Positions 6,675 to 58,184 of a stretch of DNA of 64,000 bases are shown one piece after another (position 1 is the first letter of the stretch; each line of letters starts with the position of its first letter). The translations under genes were made by a program, and so were the position numbers. The stretch spans positions 4,768-68,767 of the forward strand of contig CAZETW010000003.1 in NCBI GenBank assembly GCA_964515295.1. Reading direction: 5' to 3'. This DNA is from an uncultured bacterium (GTDB taxonomy: Bacteria; Zhuqueibacterota; QNDG01; CAYUAG01). The notes under the pieces were generated by a model. The model saw only the letters and a program-made list of their open reading frames with translations, did not search any database and had not been told where the DNA came from.

Positions 6675-7379
6675 ATGCACGGTATAGATATTTCAGTAAA
6701 TACTATTGGTACAAGACTTGATGTTACTCTTCTTTCTATTACTGGTTATATTGATACTTCCAGTTGTCAGGAGTTGGAAAATATAATTAATGATTTATTA
6801 AATAAGAATCAAATTCAGATTATAGCTGATCTTGGTGGGGTAACCTATGTAAGCAGTGCAGGGTGGGGAGCATTTATGAGTAAACTGAAGAATATTCGTG
6901 ATCAGGGCGGTGATATCAAGATCGTACAAATGAGTCAGGAAGTTTTTGAAATTTTTGAAATGCTGGAATTTGATAAAATTTTAAGAAATTATGATTCTAT
7001 TGAAGAAGCATTAAATGATTTTGAAATAATCAGGGGAATAGATATTACAAGTGCTGGAGCAGTAACAGGTAATACAAAAGAAGTAAACCCTTTAATCGAT
7101 TATGATCCCAGAGTAGAGAACCTTTTTGAAGGTGAGGGTATACAGATTGATTCTTTAGCTTCAGAATATAAGCATCAGAATTTACAATTGCCTGTTAATG
7201 AAAAAATTAAAACGATAATTTTAGAAAATCCAATGTACAGCATAAGCAAGATATGTAAAAGAATGAATTCCGAAGAATACGGGAAAATAAAAATTGGTTG
7301 GTTTCAGATGCGTTCACTTTTAAAGAATATGAGTCTTGAAACAAAAGAAAAAAGGTATAGATTTTATAGATCAAGATAA
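6675..7379 (+). CDS. STAS-domain protein (anti-sigma-factor-antagonist-like) with ~120-aa C-terminal extension
   Basis: N-terminal ~110 aa match SpoIIAA/STAS (DLGGVTYVSSAGWGAF with serine in phospho-acceptor position); C-terminal basic region of unknown function. Confidence 0.7.
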   Translation: MHGIDISVNTIGTRLDVTLLSITGYIDTSSCQELENIINDLLNKNQIQIIADLGGVTYVSSAGWGAFMSKLKNIRDQGGDIKIVQMSQEVFEIFEMLEFDKILRNYDSIEEALNDFEIIRGIDITSAGAVTGNTKEVNPLIDYDPRVENLFEGEGIQIDSLASEYKHQNLQLPVNEKIKTIILENPMYSISKICKRMNSEEYGKIKIGWFQMRSLLKNMSLETKEKRYRFYRSR

Positions 7380-7488
7380 TTATGGAGACATGAGATTATA
7401 TTTATGCTTTTTAGCTAAATTGTATCTTTTCCCTTTAAATTTATAGTATATTAAGAGTTGTTGAGTTAAACAGCCCTTTTTTTTTGTT

Positions 7489-7517
7489 TATGGTATGTTA
7501 TTTGCTTGAATACCATA
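7489..7517. promoter_or_regulatory. 8-bp inverted repeat (TATGGTAT / ATACCATA, 13-nt spacer) preceded by T9 tract, upstream of wza-like gene
   Basis: Read directly: 7489-7496 tatggtat, 7510-7517 ataccata; T-run 7477-7485; lies in the 170-bp leader of the polysaccharide locus. Confidence 0.25.
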
Positions 7518-7548
7518 CTTAAGAGGAAAATAAAAGGAGAATGGTGGG

Positions 7549-8229
7549 ATGAAATCAAAAGAAAAGTGCTATTTTATTGATAATACTAAGGTTGCATTAG
7601 TAGTATTTCTTTTTATAATCTTATTTATTAATAGTTCATATGGTCAATCTATGCGTTCATTGACAATATTTCGTCCAGGTGATGCCATTAATGTGGTCGT
7701 ATGGGAGTATTTATATGAAGAAAGAAGAAATTTAGATTTCAGTGGAGTATATCCTATAAACCCTGAAGGATATGTGGCTTTGCCTTTAGTCGGTGAGGTT
7801 AGAATTAAGGCATTAACCCTGGATGAAGTTACCAAATTGATTACAGCGAAATACTCTGACTATTTAAGAAACCCTTATGTTTATGTACGTCCCTTGATCA
7901 GAGTAACCATGCAGGGAGCATTTGTAAAACCCGGAGTATATAGGATTGATCCATCAAGCTCATTATGGGATCTTGTTGCACTGGCCGGAGGGCCAGATGC
8001 CGGTGCGGATTTAGAAAGATTGCAAGTTAAAAGAGGGGGAGATGTAATAATTAAAGGGTTGCTAAATGCTTATGAAAAGGGATATTCTCTGGAGGAAATT
8101 GGTGTAGAATCAGGAGATCAGGTTATACTTCCAGGAAGAGAGCAAATAACGTTTCGTTTTATTATTTCGATAATACATCTTTGTGGAACATTAGTATTGC
8201 TTTATTTAAGAATACAAAGAGGATATTAA
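7549..8229 (+). CDS. wza: polysaccharide export protein (Poly_export + SLBB domain, Wza-like)
   Basis: 226 aa; signal sequence; PGDAINVVVWEY...YPINPEGYVALPLVGEVRIKALTLDEV...NPYVYV and SLBB segment GAFVKPGVYRIDPSSSLWDLVALAGG; C-terminal hydrophobic segment. Confidence 0.8.
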   Translation: MKSKEKCYFIDNTKVALVVFLFIILFINSSYGQSMRSLTIFRPGDAINVVVWEYLYEERRNLDFSGVYPINPEGYVALPLVGEVRIKALTLDEVTKLITAKYSDYLRNPYVYVRPLIRVTMQGAFVKPGVYRIDPSSSLWDLVALAGGPDAGADLERLQVKRGGDVIIKGLLNAYEKGYSLEEIGVESGDQVILPGREQITFRFIISIIHLCGTLVLLYLRIQRGY

Positions 8230-8253
8230 CAATAATCTAAAAATGGTGTAGAA

Positions 8254-10550: not shown

Positions 10551-11513
10551 ATGAAATTTTTGGTAACTGGTGGAGCTGGATTCATAGGATCACATCTTAA
10601 TGAGCATCTGATAAAAGATACTAATAGTGTTGTATGTCTGGATAATTTTGATCCCTTTTATGATCCAAAAATTAAGTATGAGAATATAAAAAAGATAAAA
10701 TGTCACCCGAATTTTAGATTAGTAGAGGGTGATATATTAGATTGGAAATTATTAGATCAATTATTTAAAGGTAATAAATTTGATGTTGTTGTGCATCTGG
10801 CAGCAAGAGCAGGTGTTCTTCCTTCCATTCAAAATCCAAGGTTATATCAGAAAGTGAATATTGAGGGAACTGTTAATCTCCTGGAGTTAAGCTGTCAATA
10901 TACGGTCGGTAAATTTATTTTTGCTTCTTCATCTTCAGTATATGGAAATAATACAAAAGTACCTTTTTCAGAAAATGATCCAGTGGATCATCCCATTTCT
11001 CCCTATGCTGCCACTAAGAAAGCAGGCGAGCTTATTGCTCATACCTTTTCTTCTTTATATGATTTACCGGTTACCTGTTTGAGATTTTTTACTGTATATG
11101 GGCCAAGACAACGTCCAGATATGGCAATACATAAATTTACCAGATTAATTGATAAAGGGAAAACAATACCAGTTTATGGTAATGGTAAAAGCCGAAGAGA
11201 TTATACGTATATTGATGATATAATATCAGGTATCCTGCTTTCAATCGAAAAGTGTAAAGGGTTTAATATATTTAATTTAGGAGAATCGCAGACAATTGAA
11301 TTAAATAACCTGATCAAGCTGATCGAGGATGGATTAAACAAGAAAGCAAAAATTGAACGGTTATCTGAACAAGCGGGGGACATGAAAAAAACATATGCAG
11401 ATATAACTAAAGCCACAAAAGAACTGGGATATATACCTTCTTTTTCTATTGAAAATGGAATAAATGAATTCATTACTTGGTACAGGGATGTTCATGAAAT
11501 GGACACAGATTAA
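10551..11513 (+). CDS. NAD-dependent nucleotide-sugar epimerase (UDP-glucuronate 4-epimerase-like)
   Basis: 320 aa; TGGAGFIGSHL Rossmann motif, YAATKKAGE catalytic YxxxK; RBS-ATG immediately after wzc. Confidence 0.8.
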   Translation: MKFLVTGGAGFIGSHLNEHLIKDTNSVVCLDNFDPFYDPKIKYENIKKIKCHPNFRLVEGDILDWKLLDQLFKGNKFDVVVHLAARAGVLPSIQNPRLYQKVNIEGTVNLLELSCQYTVGKFIFASSSSVYGNNTKVPFSENDPVDHPISPYAATKKAGELIAHTFSSLYDLPVTCLRFFTVYGPRQRPDMAIHKFTRLIDKGKTIPVYGNGKSRRDYTYIDDIISGILLSIEKCKGFNIFNLGESQTIELNNLIKLIEDGLNKKAKIERLSEQAGDMKKTYADITKATKELGYIPSFSIENGINEFITWYRDVHEMDTD

Positions 11514-12207
11514 AAATTTTTTTGATCCTCAATATGAAGATAATGCCTGGGGGAAATGGATAGAATGTAATAAAAAGTATATTCACGATAAAGAAAATTT
11601 GTTGATCTTAGATGCTGGCTGCGGTACTGGTTTTGGATCAGCATTGAGAAAATTTAAATCAATAGAAAAAATTGGTTGTGATATTGACAAAAATTTAGCA
11701 AGTAAAAAATATCTTGATTTCTGGGTTTGTTGTTCAATTGAAAAGTTATGTTTTAAAAAAAATATTTTTCAGGCAGTAACCTGTAACTGGGTTTTAGAAC
11801 ATGTAAAAAATCCTAAGATGACTATTGAAGAAATCAACAGGACCATTGACAGGGGTGGATATTTTATATTTCGTACTCCAAATATTTTTAATTATGCTAT
11901 ATTGTTATCATATATAACATCAGTTAGATTTCATAATTTTTTTCGTAATTTGAACAGTAAGCAAGAAAATGGGAATGCTGATAATGTTCCTACTTATTAT
12001 TACGCAAATACTAAGTACCGATTACAAAAATACCTGAAAAACTCAGGATTTGAAATTGTTGATATATATTATCAGGGAACAGCAAGTGAATATCTCACCT
12101 TTTCTCCATTATTGTATGGTATGGGGAAGATTGGTGATTTAATTACAAATTTATTTTTCCTTCGTTGGTTAAAAAAAAATATAGTATGTGTTGCAAAAAA
12201 AAAATGA
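11464..12207 (+). CDS. class I SAM-dependent methyltransferase
   Basis: 247 aa; motif I LDAGCGTGFG; overlaps 3' end of upstream epimerase (true start may be ATG at 11488/11494). Confidence 0.75.
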   Translation: MNSLLGTGMFMKWTQIKNFFDPQYEDNAWGKWIECNKKYIHDKENLLILDAGCGTGFGSALRKFKSIEKIGCDIDKNLASKKYLDFWVCCSIEKLCFKKNIFQAVTCNWVLEHVKNPKMTIEEINRTIDRGGYFIFRTPNIFNYAILLSYITSVRFHNFFRNLNSKQENGNADNVPTYYYANTKYRLQKYLKNSGFEIVDIYYQGTASEYLTFSPLLYGMGKIGDLITNLFFLRWLKKNIVCVAKKK

Positions 12208-12233: not shown

Positions 12234-13667
12234 ATGATTAGAGAAAAAGAAATATTTTTAATACGGTTAATGAAGTTTGTTGACGGACTAATTATAGTTT
12301 TTTCATTTTTAATTTCTTATGTGATAACTACTGAGCTCCGAAAATCTTTAGGGCTATCTTATTGGATGAATTTTGGCAGTTTTGTTCAGAATTTTCTTTT
12401 AGTCGGGATTTTGTCGATACCAATATGGATTATTACTATGTCCTATTACCGGGTTTATAAAAATTTTCGTACCATATCATTTTCTATTGTCATATGGAAT
12501 CTTATAAAATCAAGTGTATTAACACTTGTTTTTCTCGGGAGCATAACATTTATAATCAAAATGGAATTTGCCAGTCGATCCTATATTGCTGGATATGTTA
12601 TTATTACTGGAGTATTATTGACTTTAGAAAAATTTATAATCAGAAAAATATTAAATGTTATATATCGCAGTGGTCATAATCTTATAAATTTACTTATTGT
12701 TGGGACCGGAAGAAGAGCCCGGGGATTTATTAGTATTGTCAATGAACATAAAAACTGGGGATTGCAGATTGTCGGTCTTATAGATGATGATCCTAAATTT
12801 TTAGGTAAAAAAATCATGAATTATGAGATTATAGGCAGAATAAGAGATATTCCCCGGTTATTAAGAGAATTAGTTGTGGATCAGGTGGTTTTTGTGGTTC
12901 CCAGGATGTGGCTCAATCGTATTGAAAAAATTATTTTTCATTGTGAGAATGAGGGAGTAAGCACAGCAGTTTCACTGGATCTCTATAATCCTAAGTTTGC
13001 TCAAATGCGGATATCAAGCTTAGCTGAAGTTCCTCTGTTGATCTTTCATACCTCCATCGCAAAAGAATGGCAGTTATTTTTCAAGAGATCTATTGATTTA
13101 ATTATATCTTTTATATTTCTCATACTTATGTTCCCATTATTCATTCTCATTTCGGTCATCATTAAGTTAACCTCAAAAGGTCCTGTATTTTTTCGTCAGA
13201 TACGGAGTGGAAAATACGGCAGAAAATTTATACTGTATAAATTCAGGTCAATGTATGTCGGAGCTGAGAATCAGAGAGAATTATTGGATAAAAAAAATGA
13301 AATGAACGGACCCGTATTTAAAATGAAAAAAGATCCTCGTTGTACGAAATTTGGGAAATTCATGAGAAGATTCAGTATAGATGAGTTACCTCAGTTTTTT
13401 AATATTCTAAAAGGTGATATGAGTCTGGTAGGACCTCGTCCTCCCATTCCTTCAGAAGTAAATAATTATGAAACCTGGCAGAGACGACGTTTGAGTATGA
13501 AGCCGGGTTTAACCTGTATATGGCAGGTAAGTGGAAGAAATGAAGTGGATTTTGAAGAATGGATGGAAATGGATCTGAAATATATTGATAATTTTTCTTT
13601 ATGGTTGGATTTTAAAATTTTAATTCGTACTTTTTTTGTTGTTATTACCGGTTATGGTGCAGCATAA
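12234..13667 (+). CDS. polyprenyl-phosphate glycosylphosphotransferase (WbaP/WcaJ-like initiating sugar transferase)
   Basis: 477 aa; 4-5 N-terminal TM helices, Rossmann-like middle, C-terminal Bac_transf domain (FRSMY...DELPQFFNILKGDMSLVGPRP...KPGLTCIWQVSGR). Confidence 0.9.
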   Translation: MIREKEIFLIRLMKFVDGLIIVFSFLISYVITTELRKSLGLSYWMNFGSFVQNFLLVGILSIPIWIITMSYYRVYKNFRTISFSIVIWNLIKSSVLTLVFLGSITFIIKMEFASRSYIAGYVIITGVLLTLEKFIIRKILNVIYRSGHNLINLLIVGTGRRARGFISIVNEHKNWGLQIVGLIDDDPKFLGKKIMNYEIIGRIRDIPRLLRELVVDQVVFVVPRMWLNRIEKIIFHCENEGVSTAVSLDLYNPKFAQMRISSLAEVPLLIFHTSIAKEWQLFFKRSIDLIISFIFLILMFPLFILISVIIKLTSKGPVFFRQIRSGKYGRKFILYKFRSMYVGAENQRELLDKKNEMNGPVFKMKKDPRCTKFGKFMRRFSIDELPQFFNILKGDMSLVGPRPPIPSEVNNYETWQRRRLSMKPGLTCIWQVSGRNEVDFEEWMEMDLKYIDNFSLWLDFKILIRTFFVVITGYGAA

Positions 13668-13689: not shown

Positions 13690-14865
13690 ATGAAAATATT
13701 GATGATTGCTCCTGAGCCAATTTTTGAACCAAGAGGTACACCTCTGAGTGTGGTCGGGCGCCTTAAAACATTATCTGATTTAGGTCATAAAGTTGATTTA
13801 TTAACATACTCCATAGGAGAAGATGTTGTTATTCCTGGTGTGAGTATATTTCGTATTCCTAAAATACCAGGTATCAGTAAAATAAAAATTGGACCTTCTT
13901 TTAAGAAAATCCCTCTGGATTTTCTTTTGTTTATTAAAACATGTATACATTTATTTAGATATAACTATCAGCTAATTCACACTCATGAGGAAGCAGGATT
14001 CTGGGGGACATTTTTAGCCAGAGTATTCAGACTTCCTCATATTTATGATATGCACTCCAGTCTTCCCCAGCAATTAAAGAATTTTCATTTTACAAATTCA
14101 AATATAATCATGCAAATATTTATAGCCATTGAACGCTGGGTTTTACGGTATTCCAGCAGAGTGATTACAATATGTCCTGATCTTTATGAGCTGGTTAAAA
14201 AAAATTTTCCGGAACAGAGTTCTGTGTTAATTGAAAATGTTATTGACTACAGTATGATTTTTGGAGAAGATGATGTGAGCTGGCAAATTAAAAATCAGCT
14301 GGAATTGGATAAAAAGAAGATACTTCTCTATACCGGAACCTTTGAACCGTATCAGGGTCTTGATCTTTTAATTAAGAGTGCCGAAAAGGTAGTTGCAATA
14401 AAAAAAAATGTATTGTTTCTATTGGTAGGAGGACATAAAGAACAGGTGGCATTCTATAAGAGGATGGTACAAAAAATGGGATTGGATGATCACTTTATTT
14501 TTACCGGACAGGTAACCCCGAATCAGGTGAACAGTTATATCCGTTTTGCTGATATTTTATTGTCACCGAGGACTAAAGGGACCAACACTCCCTTAAAGAT
14601 TTATAGTTATCTTCGTTCAGGTGTACCTGTAGTAGCAACCAATTTACTTACTCATACCCAGGTTTTGAATTCAGATGTTGCCTTTCTCTGTGACCCTGAT
14701 CCTGATAATTTTGCTAAAGGGATCATACATGCATTAAGAGAATCTTCCCGGGCAGAACTTATTGCGATGAATGCTGTAAAGCTTGCAGAAGAAAATTATA
14801 GTTACCAGGTATATAAAGAAAAGTTAAAGCGTGCATTATCTGAGGCTATAGAAAGGGCTGCTTAA
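13690..14865 (+). CDS. glycosyltransferase family 4 (GT-B)
   Basis: 391 aa; GT4 N- and C-domain pattern (EPYQGLDLLI..., E-x7-E-like region). Confidence 0.8.
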   Translation: MKILMIAPEPIFEPRGTPLSVVGRLKTLSDLGHKVDLLTYSIGEDVVIPGVSIFRIPKIPGISKIKIGPSFKKIPLDFLLFIKTCIHLFRYNYQLIHTHEEAGFWGTFLARVFRLPHIYDMHSSLPQQLKNFHFTNSNIIMQIFIAIERWVLRYSSRVITICPDLYELVKKNFPEQSSVLIENVIDYSMIFGEDDVSWQIKNQLELDKKKILLYTGTFEPYQGLDLLIKSAEKVVAIKKNVLFLLVGGHKEQVAFYKRMVQKMGLDDHFIFTGQVTPNQVNSYIRFADILLSPRTKGTNTPLKIYSYLRSGVPVVATNLLTHTQVLNSDVAFLCDPDPDNFAKGIIHALRESSRAELIAMNAVKLAEENYSYQVYKEKLKRALSEAIERAA

Positions 14866-47850: not shown

Positions 47851-47888
47851 TATATGTTAATTTTTCGAGTATTGACAGGTTTGAATAA

Positions 47889-50586: not shown

Positions 50587-50671
50587 TTAAGGTATAATAT
50601 TTGCAATAATTCATTAATTAGTTTGTAAAGCGATGAATTATAGGTAATATTTTAATATTATTGTAGATAGA

Positions 50672-51871
50672 ATGAAAATTTTATATGTAAATTATCTTTA
50701 TGACGTTACACTCAGCTCTGTTGGTGCAGCTGTACATGTAAAAGAACTGGCTGAAGCATTGAGTACATTACATTATGATGTTAAGGTTTGTTTTTTAAAC
50801 CGGTTTACAGGAGTAGAAAAGTCAGAAAAAAGAACTTTGAGAACATTGTTAAAGCAGTACTTAGGCAGGTATGTAAGTAACCTACATGCACTATACTCAA
50901 ATATATATTATTTCTTACGCGAATGGAAACTCATTATGAAAGAAAGACCGGATATACTTCTTGTACGGTATAATATTTTTAATTTTTCTATTGCAATTGT
51001 TTGTAAAATTCTAAAGATTCCGTTTATACTGGAGATTAACTCTCCAATGGTTTATGAGAAAAAAGTTTTTAGAAGATCTGTTATTGATATGATCCTGATT
51101 GGATGGTTTCTGGAAAGGTTAATGATTCATTTTGCTGCAACTGTATATGTGGTTTCCAATCAATTAAAGCAGTATTATATTGAAAGAAATATAGATTCTG
51201 AAAAACTTCATGTTATCTTTAACGGAGTTGATGAGACAAAAATAAGCCCGTCTGTTTCTTCTAAGAAAGTAAGAATGAAATATAATTTACAGGGGAAAAA
51301 AGTATTGGGTTTTGTTGGTTCTTTTCATTATTGGCATGGTATTGAACAGCTTCAATCATTGCTGATGGATATACTTTTTAACTATGATCAGACAATGTTT
51401 TTATTGGTAGGAGACGGACCTTTAAAACAAAATATGGAAGATTTTATCAAAGAACACAGAATAACAGATAGGGTTGTTTTGCCCGGATATGTTACTTATA
51501 ATGACATTCCGGAATATCTTTCTGCTATGGATATAGTGCTTGCTCCTTATCCCAGACATAGAATTTTTTATTTTTCACCAATAAAATTATTTGAATATAT
51601 GGCTGCAGGCAAGAGTGTTGTAGCATCTTCTATCGGACAAATTAAGGAAATAATTGAAGATGGGGTTAACGGGATGCTTTTTCAGGCAGGGAATTATAAA
51701 GAGATGTTAGAAAAATCCACCTTGTTGTTAAAAAATAATTCTCTCCGGGAACGCATCGGAAAAGCAGCAAGAATGACAATTGAGAAGAATTATACCTGGA
51801 AACATACAGCAGAAAAACTTAAGCACATTATTGAACAGGATATTATGGGCAACAAATATGGAGTTATGTGA
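50672..51871 (+). CDS. glycosyltransferase family 4
   Basis: 399 aa; GT4 C-domain FSPIKLFEYMAAGKSVVASSIGQIKE. Confidence 0.8.
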   Translation: MKILYVNYLYDVTLSSVGAAVHVKELAEALSTLHYDVKVCFLNRFTGVEKSEKRTLRTLLKQYLGRYVSNLHALYSNIYYFLREWKLIMKERPDILLVRYNIFNFSIAIVCKILKIPFILEINSPMVYEKKVFRRSVIDMILIGWFLERLMIHFAATVYVVSNQLKQYYIERNIDSEKLHVIFNGVDETKISPSVSSKKVRMKYNLQGKKVLGFVGSFHYWHGIEQLQSLLMDILFNYDQTMFLLVGDGPLKQNMEDFIKEHRITDRVVLPGYVTYNDIPEYLSAMDIVLAPYPRHRIFYFSPIKLFEYMAAGKSVVASSIGQIKEIIEDGVNGMLFQAGNYKEMLEKSTLLLKNNSLRERIGKAARMTIEKNYTWKHTAEKLKHIIEQDIMGNKYGVM

Positions 51872-53025
51872 TGACGGATATCAACAGAAAAATTAATGTT
51901 TTTCAATTGGTGGAAGGATTTGGTCTGGGAGGAGCAGAGAAGAAATTACTTGAATTAGTTAAACGAATGGACAATAACCGCTTTAAGACTGTAATCTGTA
52001 GTCTTGGTTTGGAAGGATCAAGTGGTAATATTTCAAAGGATTTTGAAAAATTAAAAGAATATGGTATTGAAGTGTTTGAAATTCCCCGAAAACATCGTAT
52101 TGATTTTGATTTATTATATAAATTACTGCAGATAATAAAAAGCAGACGGATTGATGTTATCATGACTACTCTGTATTATGCTGATATTATGGGTGCAGTA
52201 ACCGGAACACTCGGAGGAGTGAAAGCGGTCTTTTTCTGGGAAACAATTTCTTCTCCAGAATGGCTTGTTCGCAGAAGATTTATTTCTTACAGAGCAGCAG
52301 TGAAGTTTTGTGATAAAGTAGTATCAGTATCTCAGAGAACGGCTGATTTTTTAGTTGAGGACAGAAAGATACATCCTGATAAAATTAAAATCATACCTTA
52401 TGGTGTGGATCTGAAGAAATACAGTAGTGGGAAAGGTCATAAGATAAGGGAAAAATTAGATATCAGCGAAAAAGATAAAATAATAGGAATGGTGGGCCGT
52501 TTAGTTACCCAGAAAGGTCATATTTATTTAATTGATGCTGCAGAAAGAATAGTAAAAGAATATCCGGATGTAAGATTTCTAATAATTGGTGAAGGTGAGT
52601 TGCGTTCAGATTTAGAAAAAAGAGTGAAGGACAGAAAATTGGATAATAATTTTATTTTTCTGGGATCCCGTGACGATGTACCTGATTTACTGAAAGTCAT
52701 AGATATATTCACGTTACCTTCTCTTTTCGAAGGGCTCCCAAATGTTGTATTAGAAGCCATGGCTTCGGGGAAACCAATTGTTGCAACCGCAGTTGACGGG
52801 ACAAAAGAGGCGGTGATACATGGCCAGACCGGTTTACTGGTACCCCTAAAAGATCCGGAGAAGCTGTCAGCAGCATTAATTGATCTCCTGGATAACCCTC
52901 AGAAAGCACTGGATTATGGGGGAAAAAGCAGAAAAAGAGCGGAAGAGTATTTTTCACTGGAACAACAGGTGAAAAGTTTTGAAGATTTATATGAAAAATA
53001 TTTTATTAAAAATTTAAGGAGTTAA
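51868..53025 (+). CDS. glycosyltransferase family 4
   Basis: 385 aa; VGRLVTQKG..., EGLPNVVLEAMASGKPIVATAVDGTKE. Confidence 0.85.
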   Translation: MMTDINRKINVFQLVEGFGLGGAEKKLLELVKRMDNNRFKTVICSLGLEGSSGNISKDFEKLKEYGIEVFEIPRKHRIDFDLLYKLLQIIKSRRIDVIMTTLYYADIMGAVTGTLGGVKAVFFWETISSPEWLVRRRFISYRAAVKFCDKVVSVSQRTADFLVEDRKIHPDKIKIIPYGVDLKKYSSGKGHKIREKLDISEKDKIIGMVGRLVTQKGHIYLIDAAERIVKEYPDVRFLIIGEGELRSDLEKRVKDRKLDNNFIFLGSRDDVPDLLKVIDIFTLPSLFEGLPNVVLEAMASGKPIVATAVDGTKEAVIHGQTGLLVPLKDPEKLSAALIDLLDNPQKALDYGGKSRKRAEEYFSLEQQVKSFEDLYEKYFIKNLRS

Positions 53026-53030: not shown

Positions 53031-55880
53031 ATGGTACAATATACATCTTTTTATAGAAGAAAGTTTTTTAAATATGCAGTTATCACATCATCCATTTTTC
53101 TTTTACTTAATGCAAATATGTTAGCTCAGCATTTAGCTCATCAGGGGCATTCACATCCGCGGTCTGCAGTGTTCCATTTCAGTGGCCGGCAGCCCGAGTG
53201 GTATGCACGTTTTGATATGGTTATTACTCCGCTTACTCATGACGGGTTTGCTCAGTCTGTTCATGCAATCAATCCGGATTGTTATGTTCTTGCCTCCAGA
53301 GACTGGAATGTCGATGAGTTAATGGATATACCGGAAGAATGGCTTCTTAGAGATTCAAATGGTAATCCGGTACGAGCTTATGGAGGTCGAAGTAATTTAA
53401 TAGATATCACTGAGTACTGTTCAAAAAGCCCTGCGCATGGCGGTAAAAAGTACAATGAATTTTTACCAGTATATATGAGTACTCTTGTCGATTATTCCAT
53501 TTATGATGGCATTTGTTCACAGGGAGTATGGAATCATCCTTATAATACCGATGATGTTGATATAGATGGTAATGGAGTAAATGACTGGGAGGAACATGGG
53601 AAAAACTGGCTTATTAATGTATGGACTCAGGGAGTTGAAAAAGCTGTAGAAGTGTTACGCAATATAATTGGTGATGATAAAATTATTTTTTTAAATTCCG
53701 GGAATTTTCATACATTTGCATGGTATCATTCTAACGGTCTGATGAAAGAACGTTGTAATAAAACTTTTAATGTAAAATGGGAATTAAATAAGTTTTACCG
53801 GTGGGAGAGTTCTGCTCCCTATCCACATACTTTTTTCTTTAATTCCTGTGGACCATCTAAGAATGATTTTTATAATATGAGGTATTTCATTGGTAAAGCT
53901 CTGATGTATAATGCCTATTCCAGTTATACTGATTATGCATCCGGAGAACATCACTATACTAAATATTATGATGAATATGACATTAATCTAGGATTTTCCA
54001 CAGATAGTGTACGGCAGGTAACCTATAGTGAGATCAAAAATGAGCAGGGTATATGGGCAAAATTTTATGATAATGGAGCAGTTATTATTAACATGGATAA
54101 TTATAACAATACAATAACTGATGCTCAACTACAGACACTTGATTATTATGACGGACCATATTATCGGTTCTTAGGCGGGCAGGATCCTGAATTTAATAAC
54201 GGAGAATTGTTTACGGAAGTAACCCTTAGAGGAGAAGCACGATCTTTAGATCCACTGGGTTTTGTCGGTGATGCAATAATTTTATTGAAAGAACCTGATA
54301 CTGTGGTATCTGATATCATTATTGATGATATTGATGCCGGCACTTCTCCTGGGAGTAATGCGGCCAAATTTAAAGGAACCTGGACAAATTCAGCGGATAA
54401 TAATTATGCATTCTGGGGGGTGGGCGGAAGAGCTTACCGTAATCTGTATAATTATGCTAAAATTCAACCCGGACGGGGAGAAGCATATGCAGAATACATC
54501 CCCACTATTGGAGTACCGGGCAATTATGAAGTTTTTGAATGGCATGGATTCCTGGGAAGTAATGAGGAGACTATACAGGAAGCAACCAATGTTCCTGTTA
54601 TTATTAAATTTGCCGATAATGAAGTTGCAGAAGGCTTTATTGATCAATCCAAAGATTATAAACAGTGGAATAGTTTAGGTACGTATTATTTTACTAAAGG
54701 CACAAGCGGAGGGGTTAAGATAACCAATGATGCCGACGGACAAGTTATGGCAGATGCATTTAAATTTGTCTATAAAGGAGATGATCCTGATGACACTGTA
54801 CCACCTAATCCTCCGGAAAATTTACAGATGACTGACCATTCAGAGCATACTATAACTCTAACCTGGGATGCTCCCGGAGCTGCAAGTGACGGAGACGGTG
54901 CTGCAGCTTATCAGGTTTTCCGTAACGGACATTTGGTCGGAAGGCCTTTTGATACTACCTTTATTGATGAAGGATTATATGAAAATACCAATTATACCTA
55001 TGAAGTATACTCCATAGATAATGTAGGTAACAGAAGCTCCTCAAATATTCAGGATGTTTTTAAAACATATACAGATTATGTTCCTCCTGAAATCGTTCAT
55101 GCTCGCTTAATAAATGACACTAAACTGGAAATTCTTTTCAGTGAAAAGGTCGACCAGACAAGTGCTGAAACTCCTTCAAATTATGATGTTGACAATGGAA
55201 TTATAGTAGATAGTGTGGAAATGGACATTGCAGATTCAACTATGTATTATTTAACCACCAGTAAACATGTAGTCGGGGTTCATTACAGTGTTTCAGGACG
55301 TGATATTGTGGACCTGGCTTCAACCCCGAACAAGATAGATCCCAGTAAAACTGTGGAATATATCGGTATTACCGGTGATTCCTTAAGAATTACCATTACA
55401 GCGGATAATGTTTATAAGTTATATGTAAATGGTTATTATATTGCTGAAGCAGACGGGTGGAGTGATGCCGAGACTTATGAAATACCAACCATTGGTGGTA
55501 CGAATCTGATCGCAATTCAGGCAACTGACAGAGGAGGAGAAGCGGCAATCCTGGCAGAAATTGAATTTGGAAATGAGCAGTTTGTTACAAACGAGAATTG
55601 GAAAATTACAACATTCGAAGAAGCTGGATGGGAGACATTATCCTTTGAAGATGCGTTATGGGAATATGCTACAAGCTGGGGGCTACACGGCTCAGCTGAG
55701 CCCTGGGCAAAGTATACAGATGTTGAAGGTATTTCAACATCTTATCCTGTACACTGGATTTGGTCTTCTGATTATATAAATGATGATGTGGTGTATTTCA
55801 GGTTTACCCTGGATTATGAAGGCGATAATACAGCTCCTCAACCACCAGCGGATGTATCTGTAAACTCATCGTATCAATAA
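53031..55880 (+). CDS. secreted multidomain protein: putative glycoside-hydrolase-like TIM-barrel domain + FN3 + Ig-like + beta-sandwich carbohydrate-binding-like domain
   Basis: 949 aa; signal peptide; N-terminal ~450 aa resemble GH114/GHL15-type putative polysaccharide hydrolases; FN3 at ~aa 590-690 (ENLQMTDHSEHTITLTWDAP...YTYEVYSIDNVGNRS); C-terminal region with rhamnosidase-N/CBM-like LYVNGYYI motif. Confidence 0.55.
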   Translation: MVQYTSFYRRKFFKYAVITSSIFLLLNANMLAQHLAHQGHSHPRSAVFHFSGRQPEWYARFDMVITPLTHDGFAQSVHAINPDCYVLASRDWNVDELMDIPEEWLLRDSNGNPVRAYGGRSNLIDITEYCSKSPAHGGKKYNEFLPVYMSTLVDYSIYDGICSQGVWNHPYNTDDVDIDGNGVNDWEEHGKNWLINVWTQGVEKAVEVLRNIIGDDKIIFLNSGNFHTFAWYHSNGLMKERCNKTFNVKWELNKFYRWESSAPYPHTFFFNSCGPSKNDFYNMRYFIGKALMYNAYSSYTDYASGEHHYTKYYDEYDINLGFSTDSVRQVTYSEIKNEQGIWAKFYDNGAVIINMDNYNNTITDAQLQTLDYYDGPYYRFLGGQDPEFNNGELFTEVTLRGEARSLDPLGFVGDAIILLKEPDTVVSDIIIDDIDAGTSPGSNAAKFKGTWTNSADNNYAFWGVGGRAYRNLYNYAKIQPGRGEAYAEYIPTIGVPGNYEVFEWHGFLGSNEETIQEATNVPVIIKFADNEVAEGFIDQSKDYKQWNSLGTYYFTKGTSGGVKITNDADGQVMADAFKFVYKGDDPDDTVPPNPPENLQMTDHSEHTITLTWDAPGAASDGDGAAAYQVFRNGHLVGRPFDTTFIDEGLYENTNYTYEVYSIDNVGNRSSSNIQDVFKTYTDYVPPEIVHARLINDTKLEILFSEKVDQTSAETPSNYDVDNGIIVDSVEMDIADSTMYYLTTSKHVVGVHYSVSGRDIVDLASTPNKIDPSKTVEYIGITGDSLRITITADNVYKLYVNGYYIAEADGWSDAETYEIPTIGGTNLIAIQATDRGGEAAILAEIEFGNEQFVTNENWKITTFEEAGWETLSFEDALWEYATSWGLHGSAEPWAKYTDVEGISTSYPVHWIWSSDYINDDVVYFRFTLDYEGDNTAPQPPADVSVNSSYQ

Positions 55881-55918
55881 ATATGTGATGTTAATGTTAT
55901 TATTTAAGAGTAAAGAGT

Positions 55919-56611
55919 ATGATTATATCTCATAAATATAAATTTATCTTTCTTAAGACAAACAAAACAGCGGGCACAAGTGTTGAAATTGCTTTATCAA
56001 AATTTTGTGGTCCAAATGATATTATTACACCTGTTACCAGAGAAGATGAGAAAACAAGAAAAAAATTTGGTTATCCTGGTCCGCAAAATTGTCTGGCGCC
56101 TGTAACAGATTATGGTTTGAGAGACTGGATCCGTTTAATTGTAAAAGCAAGAAGAAAACTTACCTATTATAATCATATTTCTGCTGTTAAGGTAAAAAAA
56201 TTAATCGGAGAAGAAATTTGGAATAATTATTTTAAATTTTGTATTGAACGGAATCCCTGGGATCGTTTTCTGTCATTTTATTACTGGATCAATCAGTCTG
56301 AACCGCGTCCGACAATTTTGGATTTTGTCAACTCAAAAGTTCCCTTAATACTCAAGAGACGAGGATTTGAAGTCTACACCATTAATGGAAAGATTGCTGT
56401 GGATAAAGTTTGTTTTTTTGAAAACCTGAAAGAGGATTTAGAAGAAGTGAGGATCCGGATAGGATTACCTGAAAAGTTAGATCTGCCCAGAGCCAAGTCT
56501 ACCTACAGAAAAGACAGACGAAGCTATCGTGAAGTATTAAATGAAAATGAGAGAAATAAAATAAAACAATTATTCAATCAGGAAATTTCGTATTTTGGCT
56601 ATGAGTTTTAA
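55919..56611 (+). CDS. sulfotransferase, galactose-3-O-sulfotransferase-like family
   Basis: 230 aa; 5'-PSB-like FIFLKTNKTAGTSV (cf. Gal3ST FLKTHKTASST); 3'-PB-like RNPWDRFLSFYY. Confidence 0.6.
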   Translation: MIISHKYKFIFLKTNKTAGTSVEIALSKFCGPNDIITPVTREDEKTRKKFGYPGPQNCLAPVTDYGLRDWIRLIVKARRKLTYYNHISAVKVKKLIGEEIWNNYFKFCIERNPWDRFLSFYYWINQSEPRPTILDFVNSKVPLILKRRGFEVYTINGKIAVDKVCFFENLKEDLEEVRIRIGLPEKLDLPRAKSTYRKDRRSYREVLNENERNKIKQLFNQEISYFGYEF

Positions 56612-57540
56612 ACAAATTTTTTGTAATCTGTCTTAACAGTATATGGTAAGGTTAATAATGAAGTTAAAAATTTTAAGGTTTTGTTAAGATTGATTTGATT
56701 GTCTTTTTTTATAACGATAGAATTTTTGAATCTGTCAGGATTACCTGATAGATCATGTCTTACTTTTTTAAAATTAATTTTTCTGTTTGTCAATATATCA
56801 TCAACAGTATCATCTATCCCGATAAAATTGAATACTTGTTTAAGTTCTTTATTTGGGTTCTCTAAAAATTTTTCTAAATAAAGTTTATAATAATTTGTAT
56901 TATGGAAAAATTTTTCACTGAAAAGATTAAGTCTGATGTAATTTTCACAGGATTTTAAAAATGGTCTGTTACCCATTGTAATACTTCTATCTTTTGTAAC
57001 AACCTGTTTTTTCTTTTTATAACTGGCAGAATAGATAGCACCTCTGGGGTTTCTAATGACGTGTAAATAATAAACCTTGAAATCAGGCATATAGTTAAGC
57101 AGAATACCATATAAATAGTGCTTAGAACTATCAACAATTATTTTCTTATCGGAATTAAACACTATGGAATTATATATATTATTTAATAATAAAATATAGT
57201 CTTTAAAATAATTCTTAACATAGTTAATATATAATTTGTTAATTGGCAGGTATGGTAAAATCTTGAGTATTGTATGGTGTGTTGTTATATCATACTTTTT
57301 ATTGTTATAGAATTCATTCTTATCATTGACAGGTAAATGTATAGTTTCAAAAACATTGTTCCAGAATGTACAAGTATGAAAATCGGAGCCGCAGTTACAT
57401 TGCCAGTTTTCCTTAAATCCCCTATGCCACAAATACCAGAATTCCCCTATGCTCATTATCTGATCATTTTCATTCAGAATATTACTGATTAAAGTGGATC
57501 CGCTCCGTACCATTCCGCTAATATACACTATTTTTTTCAT
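56608..57540 (-). CDS. sulfotransferase (PAPS P-loop RSGST type, Stf0/Sulfotransfer_3-like)
   Basis: 310 aa; VYISGMVRSGSTLISNIL 5'-PSB loop. Confidence 0.65.
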   Translation of the reverse strand: MKKIVYISGMVRSGSTLISNILNENDQIMSIGEFWYLWHRGFKENWQCNCGSDFHTCTFWNNVFETIHLPVNDKNEFYNNKKYDITTHHTILKILPYLPINKLYINYVKNYFKDYILLLNNIYNSIVFNSDKKIIVDSSKHYLYGILLNYMPDFKVYYLHVIRNPRGAIYSASYKKKKQVVTKDRSITMGNRPFLKSCENYIRLNLFSEKFFHNTNYYKLYLEKFLENPNKELKQVFNFIGIDDTVDDILTNRKINFKKVRHDLSGNPDRFKNSIVIKKDNQINLNKTLKFLTSLLTLPYTVKTDYKKFV

Positions 57541-57569
57541 GAAATTATCCTTACACTGGGAGCGTTATT

Positions 57570-58184
57570 TTATACTTTGTTTTTTATATCAGTAATAATG
57601 TTTTTTAATTTTTTTGCGATTTTACGATGTACCCGTTCTTCTTTTTTACGAACTTCAGCTTTGTTTCTATGGGGAAAAAGAATATTCGGGATTTCTTTCT
57701 CTAAAAAAGGACAAAGTTTTTGCCAGCCTTCTGCTTTAATTAAATCTAAAATCAACAAGTCATTCGGGCGGTTTTTAAAATAAGCTAAAACGTCTTTATT
57801 ATGATTTTCATATTTTTTAATGTATATCTCTTCATTGCCTTTAGGACAGCCAACACCGTATATCCATTTTCTCATCGGAGTTTTTCTTCTACCAAAATGG
57901 CTTACCATACTTTTAATCCATGAATCAGTATTTCTTACTGTAAGAATAAATTTACTGCCAGGATATGATTTGTCCATTTCTTTATAAATTATAGGCCAGG
58001 GATTATCCTGAAATGCATCATATTGTTTAACCAGATTATGGGCCATGGTATACACATTCTGAGCAATTTTTGAGTCTTTTACTCCATTGGGACCCGTAAT
58101 GCTATAGCCGAGTTTTGAAAGTGCAGTTGCAAGAGATTTTGTTCCGGTTTTGTGAAAGCCGATACAGAATATTTTAGTTTTCAT
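57570..58184 (-). CDS. sulfotransferase family protein (small bacterial Sulfotransfer_4-like)
   Basis: 204 aa; IFCIGFHKTGTKSL (5'-PSB-like) and TVRNTDSWIKS (3'-PB-like R...S). Confidence 0.55.
   Translation of the reverse strand: MKTKIFCIGFHKTGTKSLATALSKLGYSITGPNGVKDSKIAQNVYTMAHNLVKQYDAFQDNPWPIIYKEMDKSYPGSKFILTVRNTDSWIKSMVSHFGRRKTPMRKWIYGVGCPKGNEEIYIKKYENHNKDVLAYFKNRPNDLLILDLIKAEGWQKLCPFLEKEIPNILFPHRNKAEVRKKEERVHRKIAKKLKNIITDIKNKV

Follow-up and report, generated by a model that had tools for sequence, protein, structure and literature searches.

A 51-kb locus predicted to make, decorate and export a complex surface polysaccharide in an uncultured Zhuqueibacterota bacterium

Results

The 64,000-nucleotide stretch of DNA analysed here (the window) carries an intact 51-kb cluster that, from its gene content, is predicted to make, decorate and export a complex surface polysaccharide. 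We favour, with a probability of about 0.6, a single chromosomally native Wzx/Wzy-dependent heteropolysaccharide locus (EPS or capsule), composed of three modules and inherited as a unit. Its presumed single polymer probably contains rhamnose and an amidated uronic acid, with methyl, acetyl and sulfate groups and with periplasmic side branches from lipid-linked donors. The locus belongs to a well-known type, of which it is a large member, and does not represent a new kind of system.

Gene content and integrity

The analysis establishes domain identities, gene integrity and conservation patterns; the sugars, their acceptors, the lipid-linked substrate of each flippase and the single product are inferred. 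The ORF listing and the Pfam/NCBIfam scans revealed 39 contiguous ORFs between positions 6675 and 58184 (Table 1), 36 of them on the + strand, and almost all are for polysaccharide synthesis. The block is 97% coding, with only ~1.5 kb of non-coding DNA, and neighbouring genes overlap or sit close. Domain E-values ranged from ~1e-9 to 1e-100 across the block, so chance matches are no concern. Nearly all equivalog-level NCBIfam matches fell below their curated cutoffs, and hence the substrate assignments are weak. An initial annotation had described one large, ~50-kb, mainly co-directional surface-polysaccharide locus, and both gene content and conservation in relatives uphold this description. 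The Wza, Wzc, WbaP-like transferase, GlpD-like oxidoreductase, two methyltransferases, acetyltransferase domain, three sulfotransferases and six SDR enzymes (one fused, one RmlD) that it had listed were all recovered, as were three Wzx and one Wzy. Its count of at least 13 GT2/GT4 enzymes was too high: 12 were found (7 GT4 and 5 GT2), the would-be thirteenth being the glycogen synthase at 5176-6648, outside the block. The minus-strand GT-C enzyme that it had placed at 32.8-34.4 kb is real, but is one of four. The redundancy proposed for export and polymerisation holds for Wzx only, since genes for the OPX, the PCP/kinase, Wzy_C and the initiating transferase each occur exactly once in the window.

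Table 1. Genes of the polysaccharide locus (a single number is the gene start)
Feature	Position	Strand	Evidence
STAS-domain protein, 234 aa	6675-7379	+	Pfam STAS, TIGR00377
Short OPX, Wza-like, 226 aa	7549-8229	+	Signal peptide, Poly_export, one SLBB
Wzc-like PCP-2a co-polymerase fused to tyrosine autokinase, 761 aa	8254-10539	+	Wzz, GNVR, AAA_31
SDR epimerase/dehydratase	10551-11513	+	Pfam/NCBIfam
Class-I methyltransferase	11464-12207	+	Pfam/NCBIfam
Polyprenyl-phosphate hexose-1-phosphate transferase, WbaP/WcaJ type, polytopic	12234-13667	+	Bac_transf, CoA_binding_3
GT4	13690-14865	+	Pfam/NCBIfam
AsnB1, glutamine-dependent AsnB-type amidotransferase	14865-16742	+	Cys2 present (MCGICG)
Methyltransferase (class-I)	16784-17560	+	Pfam/NCBIfam
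GlpD-like FAD oxidoreductase (flavoprotein)	17650-19326	+	Pfam/NCBIfam
HpnA/OleD-like SDR	19338-20327	+	Pfam/NCBIfam
Hexapeptide O-acetyltransferase fused to GT2	20376-22151	+	Pfam/NCBIfam
GT4, hypervariable allele	22121-23314	+	Pfam/NCBIfam
Wzx-type flippase 1	23307-24785	+	Polysacc_synt
AsnB2, AsnB-like synthetase	24782-26596	+	Starts MIFGVTG
GtrB/ArnC/AglJ-type polyprenyl-phosphate sugar synthase, GT2	26660	+	Two C-terminal TM helices
GtrB/ArnC/AglJ-type polyprenyl-phosphate sugar synthase, GT2	27621	+	Two C-terminal TM helices
SDR	28657	+	Pfam/NCBIfam
GtrB/ArnC/AglJ-type polyprenyl-phosphate sugar synthase, GT2	29701	+	Two C-terminal TM helices
GT4	30650	+	Pfam/NCBIfam
Generic membrane-anchored GT2	31886	+	TM prediction; PDB matches
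GT-C, polytopic	32827-34362	-	PMT_2
GT-C, polytopic	34543-36222	+	No Pfam match; weakly LA_3751/3752-like (Leptospira family)
GT-C, polytopic	36481-38181	+	PMT_2
Wzy_C-family protein, 454 aa, ~10 TM segments	38190-39554	+	Pfam Wzy_C
UDP-xylose-synthase/ArnA-C-terminal-like SDR	39584-40567	+	NF008872, 164 bits (below cutoff 294)
GT-C, polytopic	40598-42274	+	PMT_2
SDR fused to Gfo/Idh/MocA oxidoreductase, 703 aa	42296-44407	+	Pfam/NCBIfam
MurJ/Wzx-type flippase 2	44401	+	Polysacc_synt
Cps2T-like GT4 with DUF1972	45839	+	Pfam/NCBIfam
RmlD (SDR fold)	46942	+	Above curated cutoff
GT4	47889	+	Pfam/NCBIfam
Wzx-type flippase 3	49126	+	Polysacc_synt
GT4	50672	+	Pfam/NCBIfam
GT4	51868	+	Pfam/NCBIfam
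Secreted putative glycoside hydrolase, multidomain, 949 aa	53031-55880	+	Pfam, AF2, Foldseek
Sulfotransferase	55919-56611	+	Sulfotransfer_2
Sulfotransferase	56608-57540	-	Sulfotransfer_1/3
Sulfotransferase	57570-58184	-	Sulfotransfer_4

For the 38 of the 39 called genes that could be paired, dN/dS was 0.04-0.18, equal to that of the housekeeping flanks. All 38 are under purifying selection and none is a pseudogene, although pseudogenes had been named as a finding that would undo the original claim. Promoter and terminator scans of the locus gave a signal at background level. No NTP_transferase or UDPG_MGDP_dh domain was detected in the window, in agreement with the earlier report of a missing nucleotidyltransferase and UDP-sugar dehydrogenase. 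A Wzb phosphatase, a PAPS-synthesis gene and rmlABC were likewise not found there, which weighs against the favoured reading. Precursor supply (rmlABC, ugd, nucleotidyltransferases and PAPS synthesis) must, as already proposed, be encoded elsewhere. In one distant relative ugd is located inside the locus, which supports a uronic acid in the polymer.

Conservation across relatives

The head of the locus adjoins Lgt-TPR-GlgA in ten contigs from relatives (L002/L088, L087, L089-L094 and L103; 33-96% identity). In the relative at 85% identity, gene order between flippase 1 and the right flank is identical, and in a relative at 44-50% a single 245-kb contig has head and tail on one strand, with 13.6 kb between them. 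This co-conservation speaks against two unrelated loci that happen to be adjacent, the other outcome that would have undone the initial claim. The comparison of synteny that had been suggested did reveal sub-blocks that vary between relatives, namely the GtrB/GT-C block, the sulfotransferases and one GT4 allele. The comparison shows a modular locus, inherited as a unit.

Could the block be a recently assembled mosaic island of horizontally acquired pieces? Among 2-kb windows GC content ranges over 0.29-0.40, one GT4 allele is strongly divergent, and accessory content differs among relatives (sulfotransferases, a nitroreductase plus 618-622-aa pair, a radical-SAM/SPASM gene, ugd and the SDR-Gfo fusion). 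However, the GC swings follow protein type, low in membrane proteins and high in conserved enzymes; GC3 is 0.22-0.38 across the locus with the flanks alike, and per-gene GC3 and codon-usage distance overlap with those of the housekeeping flanks. The window ORFs include no integrase, transposase, tRNA or repeat boundary, and the position beside glgA is kept down to 33-50% identity. The minus-strand genes had been read as a hint of mosaic assembly, but the GT-C at 32827-34362 is found at the same place in the relatives at 85% and 71% identity. We therefore consider a recent mosaic origin highly improbable.

Module 1: predicted export, initiation and tailoring

The STAS protein combines an anti-sigma-antagonist-like domain with a 120-aa tail. 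In every relative seen, its gene is flanked by glgA and the exporter gene; it forms the junction between glgA and the locus and encodes a possible partner-switching regulator. An unrelated contig (L006) also has the glgA-STAS pair, and the gene is tied to glgA as strongly as to the polysaccharide locus.

The first module (7.5-26.6 kb) would provide export and chain-length control via the short OPX protein and the Wzc kinase. The OPX protein gave weak NCBIfam matches to EpsE, pepcterm_export and EpsY, and its C-terminal hydrophobic helix is kept in seven orthologues. The Wzc-like protein exceeded the TIGR01007 cutoff (187.6 bits vs 108), and has a Walker A motif (SPGEGKSF, residues 583-590) and a Tyr cluster at the C-terminus. 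The OPX and the PCP-2a tyrosine autokinase, both deeply conserved in the head of the locus, are export machinery of the Wza/Wzc type and argue against an LPS O-antigen locus, in which Wzy_C would act as a ligase (WaaL type) or as O-antigen polymerase and the polysaccharide would end up on lipid A-core instead of leaving the cell as a free or capsular polymer. Three points fit such a locus: O-antigen clusters are typically large and co-directional with rhamnose genes, Pfam Wzy_C spans ligases as well as polymerases, and one GT-C weakly matches a Leptospira family. Neither a Wzz-only chain-length regulator nor lipid A-core genes were found in the window, and an O-antigen product is very unlikely.

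In the preferred single-polymer reading, synthesis would be initiated by the sole hexose-1-phosphate transferase of the window and continued by the core glycosyltransferases and flippase 1. The transferase has five predicted TM segments, and scored above the cutoff of TIGR03025 (413 vs 295) and below that of the WcaJ model (360 vs 410). AsnB1, with TIGR03108 (XrtA/PEP-CTERM amidotransferase) as closest model (692 bits, cutoff 817), would use glutamine to amidate, probably, a uronic acid. Both amidotransferases of the initial annotation are AsnB-like proteins, but AsnB2 lacks the catalytic Cys2 nucleophile of the glutaminase site that AsnB1 has. Further tailoring would fall to the two methyltransferases, the O-acetyltransferase domain and the GlpD-like flavoprotein/SDR pair. 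The genes at 16784-20327 (methyltransferase, flavoprotein and SDR) appear to be a conserved tailoring trio, with an order kept in relatives down to ~50% identity; two relatives have a radical-SAM/SPASM gene inserted between flavoprotein and SDR. The methyltransferase gene at 11464-12207 is missing in the distant relatives L002 and L092. The GT4 at 22121-23314 shares 66% identity with its L089 counterpart, against 91-95% for its neighbours, and its dS is 1.36 vs roughly 0.2-0.5 for other head genes.

Module 2: proposed lipid-linked donors and side branches

The second module (26.7-42.3 kb) is proposed to act in periplasmic decoration. Its donor-synthesis half spans 26660-32800 and includes three GT2s that align full-length with ArnC, PgfS, AglJ and PpgS, all below the NCBIfam cutoffs. 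They match the GtrB-type architecture, a GT2 domain with one or two C-terminal TM helices (PMC11127046); the PDB matches of the GT2 at 31886 are ordinary Leloir GT2s. The three enzymes would load polyprenyl phosphate with sugars, and the UXS-like SDR adjacent in this module suggests a UDP-GlcA-derived pentose. The lipid-linked donors would then be flipped, possibly via the extra Wzx/MurJ-type proteins. In the GacI/J/K/L system, the proposed flippase of Und-P-GlcNAc is GacK, a Wzx-family protein (bioRxiv 10.1101/180810), and the 71% relative has a gene for a MOP-family flippase immediately flanked by the last GT2 and the first GT-C. The block of three synthases and four GT-C enzymes fits the earlier suggestion that extra Wzx proteins serve side-branch donors; the lack of a small GtrA/ArnE-type flippase in the window counts against the favoured reading. 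The four GT-C enzymes would finally attach the donors as side branches outside the cytoplasm. All four show a D-E motif near the N-terminus (first 140 residues read), taken to lie in the first extracytoplasmic loop, and distant homologues of the one at 34543 carry PF13231. The window has a single Wzy_C protein, which is presumed to polymerise the repeat units; it shares 33% identity over 414 aa with a Wzy_C gene product that a distant relative encodes inside its tail module.

GT-C/PMT_2 enzymes elsewhere target lipid A or proteins, not EPS. The locus could hold an EPS/capsule pathway that relies on the initiating transferase, Wzy, Wzc and Wza, beside a separate lipid-linked-sugar system of GtrB-like synthases, GT-C enzymes and one additional flippase, with another target such as LPS/lipid A, surface proteins or a second polymer, a reading that we consider doubtful but worth weighing. 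The presence of three Wzx-type genes fits it, and, taken together, PMT_2/ArnT-like GT-C, ArnC-like GT2 and ArnA-C-terminal-like SDR recall the lipid A Ara4N pathway. Against a single polymer, the distant relative GCA_016930535.1 has no module 2 between its AsnB2 and SDR-Gfo, and LA_3751-like GT-C homologues occur in an unrelated, differently organised EPS locus. In addition, none of the LA_3751-like homologues listed is on the 245-kb contig of the relative at 44-50% identity. Against two pathways, the window lacks a second initiating transferase, polymerase and exporter, and Pfam scans of it found no ArnB-type aminotransferase, formyltransferase or ArnD. Physically the modules interleave, since module 2 contains the only Wzy_C gene. 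Module 2 is also packed co-directionally with module 1 on one side and module 3 on the other, a place that it keeps in the relatives at 85% and 71% identity. With three Wzx-type genes and nine Leloir glycosyltransferases, the locus could equally make two different lipid-linked repeat units.

Module 3: predicted rhamnose addition, putative hydrolase and sulfation

In the favoured single locus, the third module (42.3-58.2 kb) would add rhamnose and further sugars via the Cps2T-like GT4, RmlD and three other GT4s, and it has two additional flippase homologues. RmlD, above its curated cutoff, lies beside the Cps2T-like GT4, in support of rhamnose. The SDR-Gfo fusion adjoins AsnB2 in the distant relative L088 and is missing in the 71% relative, and the order of the tail assembly module (44401-53025) is unchanged in relatives at 85%, 71% and 44% identity.

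The last gene of the biosynthetic block, directly before the sulfotransferases, encodes a protein with signal peptide, TIM-barrel, Golvesin_C, Fn3 and a lectin-like C-terminal domain, which may trim or release the polymer. The AF2 model of residues 35-440 has a pLDDT of 92.7, and the best Foldseek PDB matches of the barrel were GH168 endo-1,3-fucanases (E 3e-13, TM 0.54-0.62), followed by GH66, PelA and Ega3. The fold is thus nearest to enzymes that act on sulfated fucans (GH168) and to PelA and Ega3, which process EPS. Its homologues either bear the name 'putative glycoside hydrolase' or have PF14885.

The sulfotransferases, which mark the right end of the locus, would sulfate the polymer from PAPS. 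Wzx/Wzy clusters with sulfotransferases inside are already known (synechan; PMC8205485). Sequence reading found recognisable PAPS-binding motifs in all three, which belong to three Pfam families. Homologues are missing in two other relatives and one more has a non-orthologous sulfotransferase, whereas the 71% relative has two of the three and the 85% relative all three.

Gene content and boundaries of the locus

The region between positions 6675 and 58184 contains 39 ORFs, 36 of them on the + strand, as deduced from the ORF listing (58 ORFs of at least 100 aa in the window, of which 50 are main ORFs) and from Pfam and NCBIfam scans. Only ~1.5 of its 51.5 kb is non-coding, and overlaps or gaps of tens of bases between genes are common. 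By Pfam, the housekeeping genes on the left encode an FAA hydrolase, PurH, Lgt, a TPR protein and glycogen synthase, and the right flank encodes a chemoreceptor, an SPOR protein, YebC, RuvC and RuvA. The counts of sigma-70 promoters and intrinsic terminators over 5-64 kb were those of the shuffle background, with no intergenic terminator found, so operons were left undefined. A short ORF without family match, which overlaps the FAA-hydrolase gene in antisense, is probably not a gene. The chemoreceptor gene, whose product has a periplasmic domain of the sugar-binding-protein type, adjoins the locus and occupies the same place in a relative with 85% identity.

Domain scans upheld the initial annotation in its essentials: a Wza-like protein, a Wzc-like protein, an initiating transferase of the WbaP/WcaJ type, three Wzx-type proteins, one Wzy_C protein, six SDR-fold enzymes, two AsnB homologues, two methyltransferases, an acetyltransferase domain, a GlpD-like flavoprotein and three sulfotransferases are all present, and nucleotidyltransferase and Ugd-type dehydrogenase genes are absent from the window. 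What did not stand was the count of at least 13 GT2/GT4 glycosyltransferases (12 were counted, 7 GT4 and 5 GT2; GlgA, outside the block, would make the 13th), the single GT-C (four polytopic proteins of this type were found), and the glutaminase activity implied for the second AsnB homologue. The description of the export and polymerisation machinery as redundant has to be dropped, as the OPX, the PCP/kinase, Wzy_C and the initiating transferase each occur once and Wzx alone is multiple.

Features of the locus and of homologous contigs (window positions unless a contig is named; L-numbers are contigs fetched for comparison; - marks the minus strand)
Feature	Position	Details
ORF in left flank	335-709	124 aa
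Glycogen synthase gene (glgA)	5176-6648	left flank
glgA-STAS pair	5176-7379	26-bp gap
OPX	7549-8229	226 aa
Initiating transferase	12234-13667	Bac_transf, CoA_binding_3
AsnB1	14865-16742	starts MCGICG
Gap at radical-SAM/SPASM gene site	19326-19338	11 bp
GT4 with divergent allele	22121-23314
AsnB2	24782-26596	starts MIFGVTG
GtrB-type GT2s	start at 26660, 27621, 29701	two C-terminal TM helices each
Fourth membrane-anchored GT2	starts at 31886
GT-C	32827-34362 (-)	PMT_2
GT-C	34543-36222	Pfam-negative; distant homologues carry PMT_2
GT-C	36481-38181	PMT_2
UXS/ArnA-C-terminal-like SDR	39584
GT-C	40598-42274	PMT_2
SDR-Gfo fusion	42296-44407
Putative hydrolase	53031-55880	949 aa
Chemoreceptor	58594-60747	Peripla_BP_4, MCPsignal
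Split GT-C, 71% relative	L086 11953-13654	476 + 98 aa
Nitroreductase-like and 618-622-aa genes	L083 2282-5508	adjacent
Nitroreductase-like and 618-622-aa genes	L104 754-3917	adjacent
Nitroreductase-like and 618-622-aa genes	L105 1567-5825	sulfotransferase gene between
Radical-SAM/SPASM gene	L087 11744-12721
Radical-SAM/SPASM gene, most distant relative	L088 11665-12657
UDP-glucose dehydrogenase gene, most distant relative	L088 2115-3413
Head, 44-50% relative	scaffold_13 149.0-170.7 kb
Tail, 44-50% relative	scaffold_13 184.3-199.6 kb
glgA-STAS pair	L006 1540-4074	short contig labelled Cytophagia
Response-regulator/PAS/SpoIIE/HATPase_c_2 protein	L101 1-1472	unrelated EPS locus
Small STAS protein	L101 12763-13107	unrelated EPS locus

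The locus is conserved in relatives as a modular unit

The contig of the window is present in both Logan and NCBI. A scan of species-representative genomes with GlgA gave no close genome among the matches listed (the best listed was 42% identical), and relatives were recovered by protein and metagenome searches instead; the nearest named matches were candidate division KSB1 and Calditrichaeota. In the 85% relative (ENA ERZ27256796, a 97-kb contig) the gene order does not differ from that of the window between flippase 1 and the last of the three sulfotransferases, nor on entering the right flank, which is the same. The 71% relative (GCA_964442615.1; 71% is the identity of the hydrolase, and identity overall is 65-88%) keeps the order from Wza to the sulfotransferases. 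It has an extra radical-SAM/SPASM gene after the GlpD-like gene and an inserted pair formed by a nitroreductase gene and a 618-aa gene, lacks the SDR-Gfo fusion, has two sulfotransferases only, and is flanked on the right by MutS. The head of the locus, which comprises export, initiation and tailoring genes, was found in six metagenome contigs at 50-96% PGT identity (ten relative contigs in all, with the earlier ones), and wherever a contig reaches the left flank the head lies next to Lgt-TPR-GlgA-STAS.

More distant relatives differ in their sub-blocks. In the 44-50% relative (ERZ28614697 scaffold_13) head and tail lie on the same strand with 13.6 kb between them; the tail holds its own Wzy_C, 33% identical to the window Wzy, and no sulfotransferases. 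The 59% and 47% relatives end in GT4-GT4-hydrolase without an orthologous sulfotransferase, and one of them has an unrelated Sulfotransfer_1/3 gene. The most distant relative (GCA_016930535.1) keeps the head and has added ugd, an Acetyltransf_9-domain gene (presumably FemAB-like), a deacetylase gene and an rSAM gene. Here AsnB2 directly abuts the SDR-Gfo fusion, and therefore this site does not hold the 16-kb GtrB/GT-C/Wzy block.

Orthologue lengths in the closest relatives equal those of the window genes, and Nei-Gojobori dN/dS was 0.04-0.18 for the 38 pairable locus genes versus 0.05-0.28 in the housekeeping flanks; by this measure none of the 38 behaves as a pseudogene. GC3 is 0.22-0.38 across the locus, like the flanks, and neither per-gene GC3 nor codon usage revealed a foreign block, so that there is no sign of a mosaic of foreign DNA by composition. 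One GT4 (22121-23314) shares 66% identity with its orthologue in the head contig of a close relative (L089) versus 91-95% in its neighbours, and its dS is 1.36 versus ~0.2-0.5 in other head genes, which looks like an allelic replacement within an otherwise clonal head module.

On this comparative and composition evidence, we take the locus to be modular and inherited as a unit, with an ancient core and a variable middle block, 3′ end and one allele. An ancient core with variable sub-blocks is the usual pattern of surface-glycan loci. The possibility that the block is merely a set of adjacent unrelated loci, or that it contains pseudogenes, is rejected on the conserved order and the dN/dS values. 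The modularity that had been suspected is real, as sub-blocks differ between relatives, although the minus-strand genes, which had been read as its signature, do not mark it.

Export, initiation and likeness to known loci

By Pfam the OPX protein consists of Poly_export and one SLBB domain; its C-terminal hydrophobic helix is conserved, and its size is unusually short. In the OPX class scheme (class 1 or 3; PMC9603273), class-3 proteins need a separate beta-barrel porin; the short window protein may either cross the outer membrane on its own or depend on such a porin, and no beta-barrel porin gene is encoded within the window. The Wzc homologue matches TIGR01007 above cutoff, carries the Walker A motif SPGEGKSF and has the tyrosine-rich tail HEGYSYYRY at its C-terminus. 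A cognate phosphotyrosine phosphatase of the Wzb or PHP type was not found, with no LMWPc or PHP domain among the window ORFs, and one may be encoded elsewhere. The initiating transferase matches TIGR03025 with 413 bits (cutoff 295).

With the E. coli group 1 capsule and colanic acid loci (Wza-Wzb-Wzc, WcaJ/WbaP, Wzx, Wzy) the locus shares an OPX protein and a PCP-2a tyrosine autokinase at the head, a polytopic hexose-1-P initiating transferase, Wzx, Wzy_C, GT2/GT4 enzymes, a WcaF-like hexapeptide acetyltransferase and co-directional genes. Unlike them, it lacks Wzb, has an OPX of 226 aa with one SLBB, and carries three Wzx-type genes, four GT-C enzymes, three GtrB-type synthases, three sulfotransferases and a secreted hydrolase. 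The Wzc and WcaJ equivalog models remained below their cutoffs for the window proteins. At ~51 kb, the locus is roughly twice as long as the E. coli loci. Judged by its genes, it is of the Wzx/Wzy-dependent, Wza/Wzc-exported capsule/EPS type, all testable defining features of which were found save an in-locus Wzb.

The head also resembles the EPS loci of the XrtA/PEP-CTERM type (the TIGR03108, TIGR03013, TIGR03027, TIGR03088 and TIGR04063 set). The first AsnB homologue, AsnB1, is nearest to the XrtA amidotransferase (692 bits), several GT4s are nearest to the stp2/stp3 families, and the OPX protein and the kinase match pepcterm_export and pepcterm_TyrKin. Acetyltransf_9-domain and polysaccharide deacetylase genes are typical of such loci, and the distant relative has both. 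However, the NCBIfam matches to XrtA families (TIGR03108, 03088, 04063, 03027, 03018) were all below their curated cutoffs, no exosortase (XrtA/EpsH) domain was present in the 50 main window ORFs, and no gene for EpsI or a PEP-CTERM protein was found in the window. Because the exosortase is missing and every diagnostic model is sub-cutoff, the resemblance is one of family level and not of membership.

The synechan xss cluster of Synechocystis PCC 6803 is of the Wzx/Wzy type with in-cluster sulfotransferases (PMC8205485), and shares with the window a PCP, many glycosyltransferases and sulfotransferases of distinct subfamilies. It belongs to another phylum, its OPX gene lies elsewhere in the genome whereas here it is in the locus, and its XssS/R/Q regulator set has no counterpart in the window; conversely, the three sulfotransferases of the window are accessory among relatives, and the GtrB/GT-C block is extra. 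In 2021, sulfotransferase-bearing Wzx/Wzy clusters of the synechan type were known only in cyanobacteria (PMC8205485). Sulfated capsules are also reported for marine Vibrio and Cobetia, and their clusters can be grouped with synechan as comparators.

GtrB-type synthases, GT-C enzymes and flippases

Three GT2s (26660, 27621 and 29701, named by start position) can be aligned over their whole length with ArnC, PgfS, AglJ and PpgS. These alignments and the two C-terminal TM helices assign them the GtrB-type architecture, a GT2 domain followed by a short C-terminal membrane anchor (PMC11127046). The assignment could not be extended to all four membrane-anchored GT2s, as the PDB relatives of 31886 are ordinary Leloir GT2s.

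Each of the four GT-C proteins is predicted to cross the membrane 10-14 times and carries, in its N-terminal part, a D-E motif in what we took to be the first extracytoplasmic loop. A PDB sequence search with the PMT_2 protein 36481 gave no match. In the 71% relative the orthologue of this gene was called as two ORFs; either the assembly is wrong here, or the gene is frameshifted or a pseudogene in that relative.

A membrane-anchored GT2 combined with a polytopic GT-C is also found in Gtr O-antigen glucosylation, in GacI/J/K/L and in Citrobacter GT136 (PMC11127046; bioRxiv 10.1101/180810); the Wzx-family flippase candidates of the window and the SDR gene in the block have parallels in GacK, for which such a role was proposed, and in the epimerase ORF13. 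The window differs from these systems in having three or four sets within an OPX/PCP locus instead of a single set, and in having no small GtrA/ArnE-type flippase; its GT-Cs are of the PMT_2 family.

The three Polysacc_synt (Wzx-type) proteins and the Wzy_C protein are all predicted to be polytopic. We consider the latter a putative polymerase, although its sequence alone fits a ligase too. No small GtrA/ArnE-like ORF fits the intergenic gaps of the locus, and for this reason the two surplus Wzx/MurJ-type proteins are the best candidates for flipping polyprenyl-P-sugars. Their candidacy is favoured by the proposal of the Wzx-family protein GacK as flippase in the GacI/J/K/L system (bioRxiv 10.1101/180810), and by the 71% relative, in which the last GT2 gene is separated from the first GT-C gene by one for a MOP-family flippase. 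GacK is a better precedent than the PNAS 2024 'MATE' flippase, which was rejected as one for a 12-TM Wzx-type protein, being a 4-TM EmrE/ArnE-like protein.

In-cluster sulfotransferases and periplasmic GtrB/GT-C side-branching are both already known. What is unusual is quantity and combination: the locus measures ~51 kb, places three or four donor/GT-C sets among OPX/PCP genes, has one Wzy for three Wzx-type proteins, encodes three sulfotransferases and a hydrolase whose fold resembles GH168, and is deeply conserved although its lineage is uncultured.

Tailoring genes

AsnB1 has the catalytic Cys2. AsnB2 has no catalytic cysteine at its N-terminus and shows little of the glutaminase domain signal; given its start, the usual glutamine hydrolysis is impossible, and the amine that it ligates may not be ammonia from glutamine. 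It may form a further tailoring pair with the SDR-Gfo fusion, its neighbour in the most distant relative (L088).

The GlpD-like flavoprotein scored 250 bits with the best GlpD model, below the equivalog threshold of 360, and its nearest PDB relatives are GlpD and GlpO (E 4e-48). In all eight relatives whose contigs span the gene, it is located in the polysaccharide locus and not in a glycerol-metabolism context. It lies beside a methyltransferase gene and an HpnA/OleD-like SDR gene, an arrangement kept down to ~50% identity. A radical-SAM/SPASM gene is inserted between the GlpD-like gene and the SDR gene in two relatives (L087 and L088), and is absent from the corresponding gap of the window and from four other contigs of relatives (L089, L090, L094 and L103). 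In the most distant relative, a UDP-glucose dehydrogenase gene, a precursor gene missing from the window, lies between the initiating transferase gene and the first GT4 gene.

Secreted putative hydrolase and sulfotransferases

The N-terminal domain of the 949-aa protein (residues ~35-440) was modelled with confidence as a (beta/alpha)-barrel (pLDDT 92.7), followed by Golvesin_C, Fn3 and lectin-like domains. It has no Pfam or CAZy family match in the window protein, and a PDB sequence search with it gave no match; some homologues carry PF14885, which we take to be GHL15. The closest structural matches of the barrel were the GH168 sulfated-fucan endo-hydrolases, then GH66, PelA and Ega3. The match to GH168 had a TM of 0.54-0.62 at 13-16% sequence identity. 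With the GH168 endo-1,3-fucanases, the PelA GH domain and Ega3, the secreted window protein shares the barrel fold as modelled; it differs in sequence and in its extra domains. In every relative examined it is encoded by the last biosynthetic gene, with only accessory genes (e.g., for sulfotransferases) beyond. It would be natural to infer that the putative hydrolase trims or releases the polymer.

The three sulfotransferases belong to three Pfam families, the 5′-PSB and 3′-PB-like PAPS motifs are readable in all of them, and their dN/dS is 0.07-0.12. The tail module of three relatives contains two genes that are absent from the window, one nitroreductase-like (426-433 aa) and one without annotation (618-622 aa).

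A proposed pathway

Following pathway logic, the polytopic initiating transferase would start Und-PP-hexose, and nine Leloir glycosyltransferases would extend it. One of them is a Cps2T-like GT4 that adjoins RmlD, which implies rhamnose. Cytoplasmic tailoring would add amide (AsnB1), methyl, acetyl and sulfate groups; the amide is probably placed on a uronic acid, since one relative carries ugd in the locus. Wzx would then flip the unit, the single Wzy would polymerise it, and Wzc and the short OPX would export it. In parallel, and by analogy with the Gtr, GacI/J/K/L and Citrobacter GT136 systems, the three GtrB-type enzymes would make polyprenyl-P-sugars that are flipped and used by the four GT-Cs to add extracytoplasmic side branches. 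The UXS/ArnA-C-terminal-like SDR (39584) points to a UDP-GlcA-derived pentose.

A broader reading, to which we give a probability of about one in five, is that this is an undescribed, clade-wide system. A Wza/Wzc-exported polymer would be extensively rebuilt outside the cytoplasm by four GT-Cs supplied by three polyprenyl-phosphate sugar synthases, with flippases of the Wzx and not the GtrA type, and would be sulfated at up to three positions, and the GlpD-like flavoprotein, the SDR, the rSAM/SPASM protein and the cysteine-less AsnB could install a novel non-sugar substituent.

These data show that an uncultured lineage has a polysaccharide locus that is both large and deeply conserved, and add a candidate sulfated bacterial EPS. 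Two questions could be studied on this natural example: whether polyprenyl-monophosphate sugars are flipped for GT-Cs by Wzx-family proteins, and what role GlpD-like flavoproteins have in glycan tailoring. The locus is of practical interest for sulfated polysaccharide production and as a source of new glycan-active enzymes, with a concept that stays within known pathway logic.

A STAS gene at the left junction

The glgA-STAS pair is kept in all relatives. It also occurs on the short Cytophagia-labelled contig, and hence the STAS gene may belong with glycogen synthase no less than with the polysaccharide genes. An unrelated EPS locus (L101), whose GT-C is a homologue of the LA_3751-like one at 47% identity, has genes for a small STAS protein and for a response-regulator/PAS/SpoIIE/HATPase_c_2 protein. 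This hints at partner-switching control of the window locus, and suggests that such control of EPS loci recurs.
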